DNA of 64,000 nucleotides, taken from NCBI GenBank assembly GCA_951406725.2, contig OX597821.1, positions 5,332,001 to 5,396,000 on the forward strand, read 5' to 3'. The notes beneath the pieces are model-generated. The model had not been told where the DNA came from. It searched no databases and saw only the letters and a program-made list of their open reading frames with translations. The position numbers and the translations under genes were made by a program. This DNA comes from Octopus vulgaris (lineage: Eukaryota). Positions 25,095 through 57,926 of the stretch are shown piece after piece (within the stretch, counting starts at the first letter, position 1; every line of letters begins with the position of its first letter).

Positions 25095-26813
25095 GAAATC
25101 GTATAAAATAAAAATTGATTTGCAGTTTGTTCTTGGTCGTCCAAAGCTCTGTTGTACCATTGTCTTTATAACTGATTGCATTGTAAAGAGGGTTCAGTGA
25201 TGTAGAAGAAATCTATCCACACATACGAATCCATACACAGGAATTCTCGGATTCTCGAAGGGTTCAGGAAGTGGTCTTACTCGGTTAAATCTTCAATGGC
25301 ACCATGTATATAGATAATTGCTTGTTCCTCCCTTATCAAGCAGAATTAAGTAGAACAATAACACGCGTAAAAACATTGACTATCCCGAGTTTGTTTCTAA
25401 TATAATAAACCCAGAACTGCAATATTTCAAGCACACGCGACAATTTCAATTTTAAAATAATAAACGATGATTTAAGAGAGGTTTGGCTTCTATGACTTGC
25501 TGCTAATGCTAACAAGACGAGATACCGTTTATTTGCTACATCTTGATTAATGACAGACTGAAATCTTGAAACATTTCTTGGTTGAAATAAGAAACACCAA
25601 TCTATCACAAATAATTTACTTAGTTATTCGAGAACACGCAGTCACAACTGTCTTCCTAATAAGTAATTATCCTTACATTAGTATCTTAATAAAAGTACGT
25701 ATATTTATTTACATGTAATTTAAAATCATGTTATTTCATATCCTTTTTCTTCGGATAGACTTTTCATCTCTCTCCAGATACAAGCTTCCTATTCATTTTC
25801 AAATATATTTAATACTCAAAATAGTGACTTGTTCCTTTATGATGCAGTTCAATAACAGAACGTAATATCACACCAAACGCTCACAAAATATAAAGAAATG
25901 TCCGTGTGTGCGTCTGTGTATATGTCTGTCTGTTTGTCTGTATATACATGTACTCATCAATGTACGCTTTACATATGAACGTATGTATGTATTCCACGGA
26001 GCGACAAGTTCAAACGAAACCGTCCACTCAGAATTAAGAACTCAAACGTATGACTAAAAGAGAATAAAGTGTTTGATCCAAAATCATTAGTTCCAGAAAA
26101 TATATATTGACAAGTTAACAATTATGGATTTTGTGTGTGGTCGAGTATCATATGATATACACAGAGCTATAGTTAAATGCCCCAAATCCATATAAATACT
26201 GAATGCTAAAATAGATCATTAATTATGTCAACTGAGACACATCACACCACTGATACTTACAGTCGCGGTTTTAAGGGGAGAGAAAAAATAACGCCATTTT
26301 CTACACGCAAGAATTGAACATGCTTCCATTAAACTTAAACAAAAGAGAATAAAGCCTATGTTATATATCGTTTATTTCACTATATCGTAATCTATATGTA
26401 CTACGTTATCAAATTACCAAGATAAATTTTTCCAGTTATTAAATCTCTGACATTCTCACAATATATCCTTTGCTCTACGGTTGTTTACTATTAGGTTATC
26501 TGCAGTTATTGGATTGATATCGGAGATAAATATCTCCCAGTTATATGATATCTTGTTTGTAACATTTTATTAATTGATGCACTGGCTATTATTAGTTACA
26601 TAGCTAGCCATCTTGAATTAGTTTTTATTGATGCAGCTGTTGTTGCTATTGTTGTAGTTTTTAAAACGACGAGGTAGCAAAATCGTTAAGTCGCCGATAT
26701 ATATGTATATATATATATACATATATATGTATATATATATATATTGTCTGATGAACGGCAACGAGAAACTCAGAGTAACAGATTTTGTTGAATTTTCTGC
26801 TGCTTAAAATAAA

Positions 26814-26850
<37 letters not shown>

Positions 26851-27179
26851 TACATATATATAGAAAATAGTAAAAAGTGAAAAAACTACAGAAGGCTTGT
26901 TTTAAAAGGTTAAAAAATATATATTTGAGTCAATATGTCTGAAGAATATTATAAATTTTTTCCTTACAATGACATAGTTTAGAAGAAATGACCGGTTCCG
27001 CGTTCAGCTTTTCAAATTTCTTACATCGTTATGTTTACGTTGAGACGAGTTATCGTTATGTTTATGTTGAGAAGAGTTCTAGATAAGGGGAGGTAATAAG
27101 TGATTTCTTCCGGTGTAAGGGCGATAATCGTTTAAAATTTTTTGCCTTTCCTTTGGAGTGAATTTCTCTGTATAAGTAT

Positions 27180-27828
27180 GTTGGAATGGTTAAGTCTGGG
27201 CTTGTACTTTTCAATGAAGAATGTTTCCTTGTTTAGTCTAATTTGTGTTGGTGTTCCGATAGCACATTGGTAAAATGGAAAGATTTAAAATTGTGGTAGT
27301 AGTTGCTTTGCGCATTTCTCAATGTGCTCACTAAAAGGTATCATTCTGTATTCTGGGAATGCAATCTGCTGTCGATGCAGTGTGCATCTACGTCTGAGTG
27401 ATAGTCCCGTGGATCCCACGTAGTCTCGGTGGCAGCCCGAGCATTTTATGACATAAATTATGTTTTCAGAGGCACAAGTAAAATTAGATTTGATCTTGAA
27501 TTTCTGTCCCTCTTTGAAGAGGAATTCTGATCGTTCTAGCAGGTTTGGACATGTTGCACAGTTCGGTCTACCACATTTTTTTACTTTTGCATCGTAATTT
27601 CAGAAAACAATTTTGCTTTTGTGAGAATCTTCTTAAGTGATTTAGGTTGTTTGTAGCTTTTAATGATTTGGTGTATATTTAGAATTTCCTTTAATTTGGG
27701 GTCCTTATGAAGTATTGGTAAATTCTGGGTGATGATGGTGAAGGCTTCTTTCTTTTGGGGGTTGTATGTGGATATGTAAGGTAGTATTTTCGGGGAAGGT
27801 GTGTTGTTGTGTTGAACTTTTCTTAAAG

Positions 27829-49019: not shown

Positions 49020-50343
49020 GTTCCAGCACATGAGCTATGCCCATGCTGGGGCACCTCCATTCGGTGTTGCTACATGATTTTACTTCACGAATGCTTTTTA
49101 GCAATTGACATTTGGTGTATGAGAGAGTTTGATGCAGCTGCCCTCATCTGCACCTCCTGCTGTGAGGTTGGTTCATCTGGGACATCTGAGAGGAAGAGAT
49201 CCAGTTTTATTTTAAAGACATCTGCATCCACCCCATGCATGACTCTCAGGTTCTTCGGGAGGATATTGAAGAGCTGCGGACTTCTGAAGCCCAGGCTATC
49301 ACAATATCTTGTCCTACATCTTGATGGCAAATTTGGAGTCCTTGGTACTATGCAGTGGCGCCCAGTTCTAGCATTTGTGTAACTCTCGATGCTAAAGTTT
49401 GGGACAAGTCCTTCCAGGATCTTCCAGATGTATATTATGGCATATCTTTCTCGCCTACGCTCTAAGGATTAGAGTCTTAATGTCTTGAGTTTCCCATTAG
49501 CTTATGTTGCACGTGTAGCTTCGTTGGATCTCCACAAGTTCTGTGATTAACTTGACACTGGTTGGTGACCAAAGCTGAGAGCAATAGTCAAAGAGGCTTA
49601 GGACAAGTGTCCTCCAGAGGACCATCATGGTTTCCTGGTCTCTTGTTCTAAAAGCTCTAAGAATCCATTCGGTCAGCCGCCTACATTTCATTGCCAATTT
49701 AGCAACATGCACATGAAAGGTTGCATCATTACTCATGTAAATACCCAGGTCTCGCACTGATTGTGCCTCTGGGATTGCAATCCCTCCAGGTCCAGTGTAT
49801 TTATTGGGTATTGCATTTAGTTTTGCATGCTGATAACATAAAGCTTGAAACTCTTCAGCATTGAACTGCATGCTATTCTTTTCAGCCCACTTGTATATTT
49901 TGTCCAGGTCACATTGCAGGTGCATAGTGTCTTCAGGGTTCTGTATTACCTGTGAAACTTTTGTATCATCAGCATAATTTGTGATCGTGGCTCTCTCTCT
50001 GTGTTTGCGGGTATATCTAAGCAGGCCATTTTGAACAGCAGTGGTCCCAAAACAGTGCCTTCCAGAACACCGCTCACTATTTGCGTGTTATTGGAGGTGG
50101 CCCTATTGGCTAGTACCACCTGACTTCCATCCTTCAGAGAGTCATGAAGCCATTCTCCCAATTTTCCAACTATGCCAAGATTACGCAGTTTGTGACATAT
50201 CAGTCCATGATCGATTTTATCAAAGGCCTTTGCAAAGTCGAGATATATGACTCTTCCACATTTGAGTGGTTGAGCAGTTGTTTCAGCACCCAGTCATAGT
50301 GTTGTAGGAGCTGAGTTAGGCAGCTTCTTCCTGGTCGGAAACC

Positions 50344-53226: not shown

Positions 53227-54221
53227 ATAAACAGATAAAGTATATGACTTAACTGACCCTATCTCTTAATATTCAATGTCTCCCCTAACGTCAGTTAGTC
53301 ATTTGAGCGCCATAGTTCAGTATGATATCGCCTTCTTTTTTTCAGAGCTGTCCTTCACCTCAAACTGAGCTATAACTGAATCGCTATCTCATTACGTCTA
53401 TAGTTCATATAATAACACGATGTGCTTGTATTGAAGATGTAAGCCACTAAAGCTGGTAAATAAACATTACGTACAGTGATTCGGGAATTTGAAATCATCT
53501 TCCATTCACACGCGCGCGAACACATACACTCACTCTCACATTTACACACACACACACTCACACATCATATATATATATACAAATACACACGCATACAGAC
53601 ACATACACATGCAAAGAAATACGCTATTAATAAGATGATGCATACTAAGGTAAAATTCTCACTGTCCTGTTCTTGTTACCACTTTCAACCTCCGCAAAAA
53701 CTTTGATTTAATTTGCTTTGCGGGAAGGATTGTTTCAGGAGTAGATGAAACAGGTACAACTGATGAAAGGGGAATATTCTTTATGTTGCATGTCTCATTT
53801 CTGTGTTTGTGTTTTCGTTGCTCGAAAAAAAAAGTTCGTTTTCTATGCTTTTGTTTTTACATTTTGGTTTCTGATTATGTTCAAGTTTTTTGATGTCCTG
53901 TAACCATATATGCATGTATATATACATATATATGTCGCTATGTACATATATGTATGTATATATGCATATATCAATATATTATTTATATTATATATATATA
54001 TATCATATATATACATATATATATATATATGTATATACATATATATATACGTATATATATATTTGCATATAATTGTCACTAAATATGACTAGGGTGTTAA
54101 AAAATACCTACATTCCTAAAGATAAGAGCTAAAATGTTCTAATTCTGTAGTTAAAGCACATGAATGAAATCATATACACAAACAGGAACAATAATTGTCC
54201 GAAAAATGCAGACCAACAAGT

Positions 54222-54273
54222 CTTAAGACTAACGCGTCAGTTTCGCTAATTTCCGTTGCCACCATCAGTTAAG
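54222..54273 (-). ncRNA. Degenerate type I hammerhead ribozyme
   Basis: CTTAA CTGATGG TGGCAACGGAAATTAGC GAAA CTGACGCGTTAG TC TTAAG; one core mismatch. Confidence 0.6.
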
Positions 54274-54709
54274 CCAGCTCGGTTTTCGGCTATTTCCGCA
54301 CCTGTTTCCCTATTAGCTATATGTTTTCGTCATCCAAATTAATGGTTGATTTAACGATTCGCTAATGTGTAAACACAAGATTAATGTAAACAGCAATGAT
54401 GGCAACGGAAATTGCCGAAACTGACGCGTTAGTCTCAAAAGTTCGCGGTCGGTATTTTTTGGACAATTATGGGCTCTGTTTGTGTATGTTTTCACTCATG
54501 TGTGTTAACTACAACATTACAGCATTTTAGCTCTTACCTCTAGCAATGTAGATGTTTACTAACAGCCTAGTCACATTTAGTGACAATATAATTCTGCTTT
54601 TTGGTGAAGCATTGGAACCTGCTTTTTACATTAATTTTGTGTATATACATTAGCGAATCGCTAATACTAATAGAGAAACAGGTCCGGAAATAGCAGAATA
54701 CCGAGCTGT

Positions 54710-54760
54710 CTTAACTGCTGATAGCATCGGAAATTGCCGAAACTGACGCATTAGTCTTAA
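54710..54760 (+). ncRNA. Degenerate type I hammerhead ribozyme
   Basis: TTAA CTGCTGA TAGCATCGGAAATTGCC GAAA CTGACGCATTAG TC TTAA; one core mismatch. Confidence 0.55.
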
Positions 54761-54971
54761 TTGTTTTCAGTCGGCAATTTTCGGACAATCACGGTCCCTG
54801 TTAGTGTATACCTTTTCATTCATGTCCGTTTACTACTGCATTAGGACATTTTAGGTTTTATTTCTAGCAATGTAGGTGTTTTTTAACACCCAACTCACAT
54901 TTAGTGAGAATTATAATTCTCCATTTTGGTGAAACATTCCAACCTGTCCTTTACATTAATTTTTTATATAC

Positions 54972-55067
<96 letters not shown>

Positions 55068-55123
55068 GTGTGTGTGTGTGTGTGTGAGTGAGTGTGTGTG
55101 TGTATGTATGTATATACATATAT

Positions 55124-55236
55124 ACATAATGCTGAAAGATTTAAAAGGCCAGACAATGGAAATGGATTTTAAGATTTCAGTTTACGTTAAAATCTATTTG
55201 CATTCTTTGGCCTTTTAAATCTTTCAACATTATGTT
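55124..55236. repeat. ~110-bp imperfect palindrome/hairpin
   Basis: ACATAATGCTGAAAGATTTAAAAGGCCA...TGGCCTTTTAAATCTTTCAACATTATGT. Confidence 0.85.
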
Positions 55237-56468: not shown

Positions 56469-56939
56469 CCTCCCTTGTTCCTACTATATGTATATATATA
56501 TATATATAGTAGAAACAAGGGAGGGGGAGATTTTCGATAATCCCCACTGGTGAGCTGTAATGCAAAAAAATATATACGTAAAGTAAAAGAGAAATGCAAA
56601 CAGTTTACCCAGTTTTAATATATTTTTTTATATATTTTATGAGAGAGTATTCTTTTTTCACTGGTTTCGCTTTCGCTAATCATGACATTGAAATCATGGT
56701 AATTTCGTATTTCTTTCACAAGCTTTTTAATCCCTGCTGTGTATGGGAGTTTGTGAATGAATCAACAAGTAGAAAAATTTAAGGGGAGGTAATTGGTGAT
56801 CGTTTTTATTCGGGACAAGGTTCAAATTCGTGCAAGGTGTTAAATAAATATACAAAAACTGAAACGGTAAAGTAGTGAATGGTATATGAACATGAATTAA
56901 AACATACACTGAGACCAACGTTGGTTGTTCGTTTATATT

Positions 56940-57800
56940 TAAGCGTGTTCTGTATTTTTCGATAAATAAATTTTCTTTATTTAAATGTTCTTATACATGA
57001 ATTGTTTCTTTGCAGTGGTAGATGGGGAAAACTGTGAAGTTTCGTTGGATATTACCTGGTTGAAACACATCAGAGTATGCGTTCACTCAAAGGAATCTGT
57101 CTGATCTGTGTGAAACAGACATGCTCCTTATGTTGTGTGGTTCTCCGTCTAAGTGCTATATTGTCTGTCCTTTATAGTTATGTCCACAACCTGAACAAGT
57201 TATGACATAAATTAGATTCTCTGACGCACAAGTGAAATTGGTTTTAATTATGAACCTCTTTCCTTGTTTGAATAGGAATTCTAAGGCTTCGAGTAATTTT
57301 GGGCATGTTCCACAGTTTGGGCGTCTACATCTTCTAACCATTGGTTCCGTGTTTTCTGTGAAAAGATTCGCATTTGTCAGAAGTCTTTTCAGTGATCTGT
57401 GATTATATTTGCTTTGGATTACTTTATGTGTTAGCAGAATGCTGTTCATTTTGGGATCCCTAGTGAGCATAGGTAGATTTTGAAGAATAGTGTTGTATGT
57501 TTGATCGTTTCTAGAGTTGAGAGTTGGTATATACGGTAATGTTTTGAGATAAGGTGTGGTGTTACGTTATTCTAATGCCTAAGATTTTGACACACTTAAT
57601 TCCACCTTCTATAAGTGGGGATGAATATTGTGTCTCAGTTTTGTTCTGAGGTTTTGGAAGCTGAGATTCCGGATATTTACACCAGACACTATTGTGCAAA
57701 TCCTTTTTGCGAAATTTAAGGGGATATTTATTTTCATGTGTTTCGGGTGTCATGAGATAAGCAGAAGATATTGACTTTTGAGTTCGTTGGTTTATGATAA
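56940..57800 (-). pseudogene. Penelope-like element (Neptune-type) RT thumb, Cys linker and GIY-YIG remnant
   Basis: QYLLLIS*HPKHMKINIPLNFAKRICTIVS; LPYIPT; CRRPNCGTC; FTCASENLIYVITCSGCGHNYKGQT; homologous to 27180-27830. Confidence 0.88.
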
Positions 57801-57926
57801 ATGTCATTTACAATTTGGTTGTTAACTTCTTTCCTCATATGTATAAAAAAAGGGCGCTGTTCTCTTCTGTATTCTATTTACACACACACACACACATACA
57901 TATATATATATATTTGTATATGTATG

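Follow-up and report, generated by a model that had tools for sequence, protein, structure and literature searches.

A decayed inverted-plus-tandem insertion of a dispersed 354-nt hammerhead repeat in Octopus vulgaris, a probable non-autonomous PLE derivative

Architecture of the locus

The window, a 64,000-nt stretch of the Octopus vulgaris genome (GCA_951406725.2, contig OX597821.1, positions 5,332,001 to 5,396,000 of the forward strand), contains at 54068-54969 a single insertion in which one arm points left and two tandem copies point right. The following features can be recognized, in window coordinates:

53900..54067, no strand: TA-rich microsatellite, left flank
54068..54395, minus strand: inverted, left-pointing arm, with about 28 nt of the preceding unit's end and then a unit that has the 32-nt segment missing in c3
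54222..54273, minus strand: decayed type I hammerhead of the left arm, with A9 changed to G and two changes in helix II
54396..54647, plus strand: copy c2, 5'-truncated at the inversion point within the catalytic core, its first base being A6
54396..54439, plus strand: partial hammerhead of c2, with helices II and III and the GUC site intact and C3-G5 and the helix I 5' strand absent
54648..54969, plus strand: copy c3, a whole unit minus a 32-nt deletion at 54664
54710..54761, plus strand: decayed hammerhead of c3, with A6 changed to C, changes in helices I-III and a predicted cut after 54756
54916..54969, plus strand: 54-nt extension at the right end only, a candidate PLE "tail" proposed from this single locus
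54970..55128, no strand: TA and then (GT)n microsatellite, right flank

The original prediction had described three decayed copies, one pointing left and two in tandem pointing right, between TA-rich microsatellites. This arrangement is borne out, with a TA-rich left flank, a right flank that is TA and then (GT)n, and three homologous arms: in BLAST comparisons the inverted pair shows 82% identity over 249 nt (E 8e-69) and the tandem pair 80% identity over 257 nt. The unit is about 354 nt long instead of about 320 bp. The three arms diverge from each other by 17-20% (17.2, 17.4 and 20.0% in the pairwise comparisons), and across the 195 columns available for a three-way comparison the copies have 15, 17 and 20 private differences, with only 2 columns in which all three differ. 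Given the near-equality of the pairwise divergences and of the private-change counts, the three arms are of one age, each about 8-10% removed from their common sequence. The private differences agree with the earlier suggestion that each copy is mutated at different positions; c2 is, beyond its mutations, truncated at A6, and all three copies share a T at 54752. A profile of the three copies found no fourth copy in the 64-kb window.

The unit length of 354 nt follows from c3 when the 32 nt that it lacks and the left arm has are counted in. This gap can be attributed to a deletion in c3, because other copies of the family have an extra 31-37 letters at the same site (4 of the 12 joint rows listed) and because the predicted fold has the 32-nt segment base-paired to sequence further downstream. 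The left arm opens with about 28 nt of the preceding unit's end and is hence a partial tandem itself, with unit end and unit start joined in the register also seen between c2 and c3. The outer ends of the two arms are unequal: the left one lies 159 nt and the right one 213 nt beyond the predicted cut site, the left arm thus terminating 54 nt before the equivalent of the right arm's end. The locus is free of ORFs, with a longest stop-free stretch of 60 aa and a GC fraction of 0.36. An ORF combining RT and GIY-YIG domains is absent from it, the nearest decayed endonuclease fragment being 2.2 kb off, beyond the microsatellites and another repeat. Close to the 3' end of the unit, three small hairpins are seen at 54840-54915 (plus strand); the left arm stops just past the third, and the family-variable letters 54882-54883 sit in the loop of the middle one. 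This region is a candidate recognition site for the reverse transcriptase. A match of 54870-54917 to the Rfam histone stem-loop (E 0.53) was rejected.

The hammerhead motif and its family-wide consensus

A scan with a type I hammerhead descriptor detected six intact motifs in the 490-bp family of the same window (see below) and none at 54068-54969, where all three copies are damaged. The majority of the three copies nevertheless reproduces the compact type I hammerhead with a GUC site that the original prediction had read as a consensus: it satisfies the descriptor, having the CUGANGA core, the GAAA element and an NUH cleavage triplet, which only 30 of 200,000 resampled 355-nt sequences do when both strands are counted, the descriptor having been composed after the motif had been seen. 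As c2 starts at A6, the bases C3-U4-G5 and the helix I 5' strand are based on two local copies. The majority motif can form three helices of 5, 5 and 5-6 bp with helix I open, and is distinguished by an extra base at 9/10.1, a G10.1-C11.1 pair and a palindromic helix III. With these sizes and the extra base it does not match the 6/4/1-2 bp helices of the canonical retrozyme, but the available text of a 2026 preprint (10.64898/2026.07.22.740005) also counts minimal motifs, so that those sizes are typical rather than required. An active retrozyme in the sense of the same text (Li 2026 preprint) is judged by intact copies, of which the locus has none among three; we accordingly file it as a fossil, predicted from its sequence to be dead. 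Rfam listed no hammerhead family among the best 150 of 223 matches to the whole window, among the 7 matches at the locus or among the 9 matches at 5075-6100, a blank that says little since the intact cores of the 490-bp family were missed as well.

The stretch, or part of it, is contained in 13 of 24 listed public runs, which come from 7 studies with 4 organism labels. Contigs of four runs were aligned on c3 at 80% likeness. The three DNA-type runs, X1 (perhaps the window's own sample), X2 and X10, gave 950, 1041 and 535 matching contigs, and 877, 961 and 511 of these, respectively, are less than 95% alike, showing the repeat family to be dispersed; contig depth in these data does not equate to copy number. 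At the damaged core position 54718 the family majority has A in place of C, in 2207 of 2344 summed depth in X1 (28 contigs), 2046 of 2279 in X2 (32 contigs) and 106 of 128 in X10 (17 contigs), that is, in 83-94% of summed depth across the three runs, and this A restores CUGAUGA. The same majority letters are found in X1, X2 and X10 alike at 54723 (A>G), 54727 (T>A), 54750 (A>G) and 54761 (T>G), and the other core bases are unchanged in the best 40 of 84 rows. Taken together, the family-wide letters restore CUGAUGA, helix II and helix III. The proposal that CUGANGA and GAAA would persist in a family-wide consensus is thus upheld at the sequence level by the contigs of all three runs. Position 54752 is a T in all three local copies but a C in the family majority of the three runs (2670 of 3328 summed depth in X1, 21 contigs); with this C helix III becomes a perfect 14-nt palindrome family-wide, in agreement with the palindromic stem III originally proposed.

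Variation within the family is seen at several points. A one-base deletion at 54722/54723 is present in a minority of contigs (5 in X1, 11 in X2 and 5 in X10), which may be copies without the extra 9/10.1 base. Some members have a GUA in place of the GUC site (loose ends before 54771 in X10 and X12), and in some X10 loose ends before 54771 the helix III palindrome is 12-nt rather than 14-nt; such members suggest the existence of subfamilies. Joints from unit end to unit start, in about the register of the locus, were recovered in 8 of the 12 joint rows listed. Opposite-strand joints make up 4 of the 15 joints listed, with breakpoints that differ each time, and one of them was found in all three DNA-type runs. 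No RNA run is named among the listed runs that contain the stretch. The fourth run, X12, taken by guess to be RNA, gave 95 contigs, 90 of them less than 95% alike and none 99% alike, and its bin with the hammerhead core is uncovered; neither result was counted for or against expression. Summed contig depth is about 25 times greater at 54856-54879 than across the hammerhead, a ratio not read as copy number, since contigs are lost where mismatches cluster in the reference copy. Metagenome matches to a 21-nt stretch were set aside as coincidences, as 13 of 13 loci are alike over those 21 nt only and lie on contigs of 52-68% GC. The 354-nt family is undescribed among the literature titles found and might be present as a Repbase or Dfam library entry.

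Folded as a circle, the majority unit has a predicted energy of -90.3 kcal/mol, which corresponds to z -3.2 when 60 dinucleotide-shuffled sequences serve as the background. The hammerhead caps a long rod into which helix I runs on past an internal loop, and no contact between loops 1 and 2 is assignable in this fold; these and the following predictions leave out magnesium and tertiary contacts. In the isolated 52-nt majority motif the minimum-energy fold is not the hammerhead: the helix III 3' strand pairs with the core, a fold favored by 3.5 kcal/mol with either letter at 54752, and the mean pairing probability of helix III, about 0.01 in this motif, reaches 0.09-0.34 when longer flanks are included. 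Two copies, on the other hand, can form a 14-bp duplex through the palindrome (-20.7 or -25.1 kcal/mol). Such a predicted intercopy duplex would suit hammerheads that cleave as dimers within tandem RNA, as has been described for metazoan hammerheads (PMC4209133, in the parts available).

The rarity of the motif among resampled sequences, together with its recurrence in the family majority, bears on the possibility that the unit is a DNA element, such as a fold-back MITE or a non-autonomous Helitron, that has its hammerhead-like motif by chance. The long inverted arms would suit a fold-back element, and near 54891 a small hairpin has CTAG behind it, a configuration which we take to be loosely like a Helitron 3' end. 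This CTAG ends neither arm, the two ends of the insertion are not mirror images and the inversion points vary, so that a DNA element is extremely improbable here and largely refuted already.

Related elements in the window and alternative accounts

A second hammerhead family, with a unit of 490 bp, occupies 5073-7502 and 22540-23152. Local alignment of its unit with the 354-nt unit scores no better than chance, being equaled or exceeded by 92 and 61 of 200 shuffles, in accord with the earlier statement that the two lack similarity. They are alike in having a type I hammerhead with a near-palindromic helix III and a GUC or GUA site, an inverted-plus-tandem layout, TA flanks and two unequal ends downstream of the cut. 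They differ in that the 490-bp family has a 68-nt helix II region and intact cores and is far younger at 5073-7502: two of its arms are 100% identical and 93% identical to the third locus, against 17-20% divergence between the arms studied here, consistent with the 354-nt insertion having been called an older wave. Both 490-bp loci terminate at the same pair of ends, which are separated by 104 nt along the unit. From this correspondence in layout a mechanism common to the two families, as originally proposed, may be inferred. The locus at 22540-23152, a third one of this family with an intact core, a GUA site and an inverted pair, is nested in an element with 207-bp terminal inverted repeats (22009-22215 and 23476-23682, 98% identical).

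The recurrence of a layout with fixed ends at two loci of an unrelated family is not expected if a single old hammerhead copy had been inserted and the tandem and inversion had arisen later at the DNA level, through slippage and fold-back repair in the manner of a minisatellite. Unstable microsatellites on both sides of the locus could have promoted such events, and the accessible part of the 2026 preprint puts forward that PLE ends are locally amplified into tandems. The arms are nonetheless near-equally diverged (the 15, 17 and 20 private changes in 195 columns), which fits a simultaneous origin, and the 354-nt family has further opposite-strand joints elsewhere; later rearrangement is therefore very unlikely to account for the locus.

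Two related, decayed, endonuclease-bearing PLE 3' ends are present in the window, both on the minus strand. The one at 26865-27820 has a weak Pfam GIY-YIG match (E 0.0095, under the curated cut-off). For the one at 56515-57885, most atlas neighbors are unnamed clusters from eukaryotes, and in two rows 18-27% of the cluster members have GIY-YIG. Each 3' end has a CX4CX2C motif ahead of the endonuclease and is non-coding behind it, both as described for the Neptune and Nematis PLEs in the available text of PMC8557442. The profile of the 354-nt unit gave a match to 56931-56881 (minus strand; E 0.073; 6.7 bits, the highest score in 20 control windows being 5.0), located directly behind the PLE ORF near 57 kb and in the same orientation as the unit; this likeness is only a sequence hint of a link between the unit and a partner PLE. 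Comparisons of the unit with the 490-bp unit, the 27-kb PLE end, a fragment at 26742 and the 207-bp inverted repeat were at chance level (10 of 12 comparisons), the remaining two, both to the 57-kb PLE 3' region, being equaled by 1 and 4 of 200 shuffles.

These remains raise the question of whether the unit is simply the pseudo-LTR (pLTR) of an autonomous PLE, produced by an internal start of reverse transcription behind the 5' pLTR and by template jumps, with no independent retrozyme RNA. Such an origin would explain why the hammerhead geometry is of the PLE type and not that of a canonical retrozyme, and internal initiation close to the pLTR-ORF junction has been shown for an anole PLE (PMC11167929, as far as available). 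The weak same-orientation likeness to 56931-56881 also points this way, as does one 2013-nt contig of X2 that opens with part of the unit and is then unlike it for 1.77 kb. The same contig, however, departs from the unit at 54900, ahead of the tail, and end-to-start joints keep one register in both arms here and in the 8 listed contig joints elsewhere. Past 54946, moreover, the three listed loose-end consensuses (best 24 of 512 rows) are the unit end, a TA run or A/T-rich sequence, with no recognizable common ORF start. A pLTR origin in this form is consequently rather unlikely, and the evidence leans to an ORF-less unit of the retrozyme type over the pLTR of an intact PLE, these being the two options that had originally been left for decision.

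Likely origin of the insertion

The locus is probably best explained as a decayed three-arm insertion of a dispersed non-coding 354-nt repeat that is a non-autonomous PLE derivative, or non-LTR retrozyme, and that likely entered a TA microsatellite with the help of a reverse transcriptase-endonuclease borrowed from a PLE. In the accessible parts of PMC7229834, non-LTR retrozymes are described as short GC-poor tandem repeats with type I hammerheads, the mussel units being about 350-390 bp, and PLEs are proposed as their mobilizer; the 2026 preprint, in its available text, adds co-occurrence of retrozymes and PLEs in Xenopus together with pLTR homology. The present unit resembles the metazoan forms of both sources in being a non-coding head-to-tail unit within 150-450 bp, with a type I hammerhead, GC below 50%, a self-paired predicted circle, coexistence with PLEs and a proposed PLE origin. 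It departs from them in the extra 9/10.1 base, in having 5 bp in each of helices I and II and in the 14-nt palindrome of helix III, as well as in the inverted arm and unequal ends of the locus. The word "inverted" does not occur in the available main text of PMC7229834 and occurs once, in a reference title, in that of the preprint.

The features by which the locus departs from known retrozymes are largely those of EN+ PLEs. An extra nucleotide between 9 and 10.1, the G10.1-C11.1 pair, a short helix I and a palindromic helix III are traits of PLE pLTR hammerheads in the parts of PMC4209133 available, and PLE insertions in those of PMC8557442 are biased to microsatellites and combine a partial tandem with an inverted copy truncated at its 5' end and a one-sided tail. 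A partial tandem with an adjacent inverted 5'-truncated copy is present at 54068-54969. Relative to these EN+ PLEs, the locus lacks the RT-endonuclease ORF, its helix III is a full 5-6 bp stem and not a minimal one, and its end offset, 54 nt at one locus (104 nt at the two 490-bp loci), exceeds the published tail of 30-40 bp. The non-autonomous Chlamys PLEs such as MRC1 (PMC8557442) offer a further parallel, being ORF-less PLE derivatives with multicopy head-to-tail insertions. These are green-algal, belong to clades with an N-terminal EN reported in the same accessible text to be without canonical hammerheads, and usually resemble their autonomous family at the 3' end, where the 354-nt unit has only the weak 56931-56881 likeness.

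The arm layout is observed, whereas the RNA and enzyme steps that we infer behind it draw on the available parts of PMC4209133, PMC8557442, PMC11167929 and PMC7229834. A tandem source locus would have been transcribed and the multimer cut by its hammerheads to 354-nt monomers, probably as dimers via the 14-nt palindromic helix III; the monomers may have been circularized. A PLE protein, plausibly of the Neptune type given the decayed remains in the window, would then have nicked both strands of the TA tract, reverse transcription beginning at two internal sites 54 nt apart. Two cDNAs, each longer than a unit, would have been joined where their 5' sides were truncated, leaving one arm that points left and one that points right. 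PMC11167929, as far as available, reports for one PLE in vitro that both strands are cut and extended and that there are two internal start sites. The equal decay of the three arms argues for a single insertion, as does the T at 54752 that all of them have where the family has C; this T also suggests one template. Neutral decay of each arm by about 8-10% would have followed, and from it the locus is predicted to be dead.

Several results count against derivation from a PLE. No target-site duplication is legible in the microsatellite flanks, no partner PLE is tied to the unit by sequence beyond the 56931-56881 match, and the run contigs have no depth step at 54915; to these are added the want of an intact hammerhead in all three copies and the alternative fold of the isolated motif. 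In the literature, hammerhead cleavage was dispensable for insertion of the one PLE tested in vitro (PMC11167929, parts available), and 1 of 9 predicted Xenopus retrozymes cleaved while 8 of 9 did not (2026 preprint, available text).

The existence of animal retrozymes and their likely PLE origin are already known from the accessible text of PMC7229834 and the preprint, the latter stating that the mechanism is still to be elucidated. What is added here is a second independent family in one genome that combines a PLE-type ribozyme with a PLE-type insertion footprint. The occurrence of this footprint, an inverted arm and two fixed RT start sites (54 or 104 nt apart), on two unrelated ORF-less families might be taken as direct genomic evidence of retrozymes integrated by PLEs, with the palindromic helix III of the older family acting as a switch, off in the monomer, where it folds on the core, and on in the tandem, where neighbors pair; this fuller interpretation is tentative and, on present grounds, doubtful. 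What may interest specialists is the PLE insertion footprint on these families and the fold predicted to be off in the monomer and on in the dimer; for the locus itself there is no suggestion of a host function. The two defined ends provide concrete templates for probing PLE-driven copying in vitro.

Some smaller pieces in the window deserve mention. Within the non-coding 3' portion of the 27-kb PLE fragment lies, at 27015 (minus strand), a candidate minimal hammerhead. It has the U3-A8 swap, one mismatch in the core, 7 bp in helix I and a palindrome of 6 nt; shuffled windows yield 0-2 matches each in the relaxed scan that found it, and the candidate is not significant alone. The fragment at 26742-26815 (plus strand) is 75 nt long and bordered by TA tracts; it has CTGATGA, GAAA, a GUA site and a short palindrome, along with a broken helix II. 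It was noticed by eye and missed by the scans, and is possibly a decayed hammerhead of a further family. A broken LINE-type reverse transcriptase lies at 49085-50293 on the minus strand (Pfam RVT_1, E 6.7e-07 for one piece).
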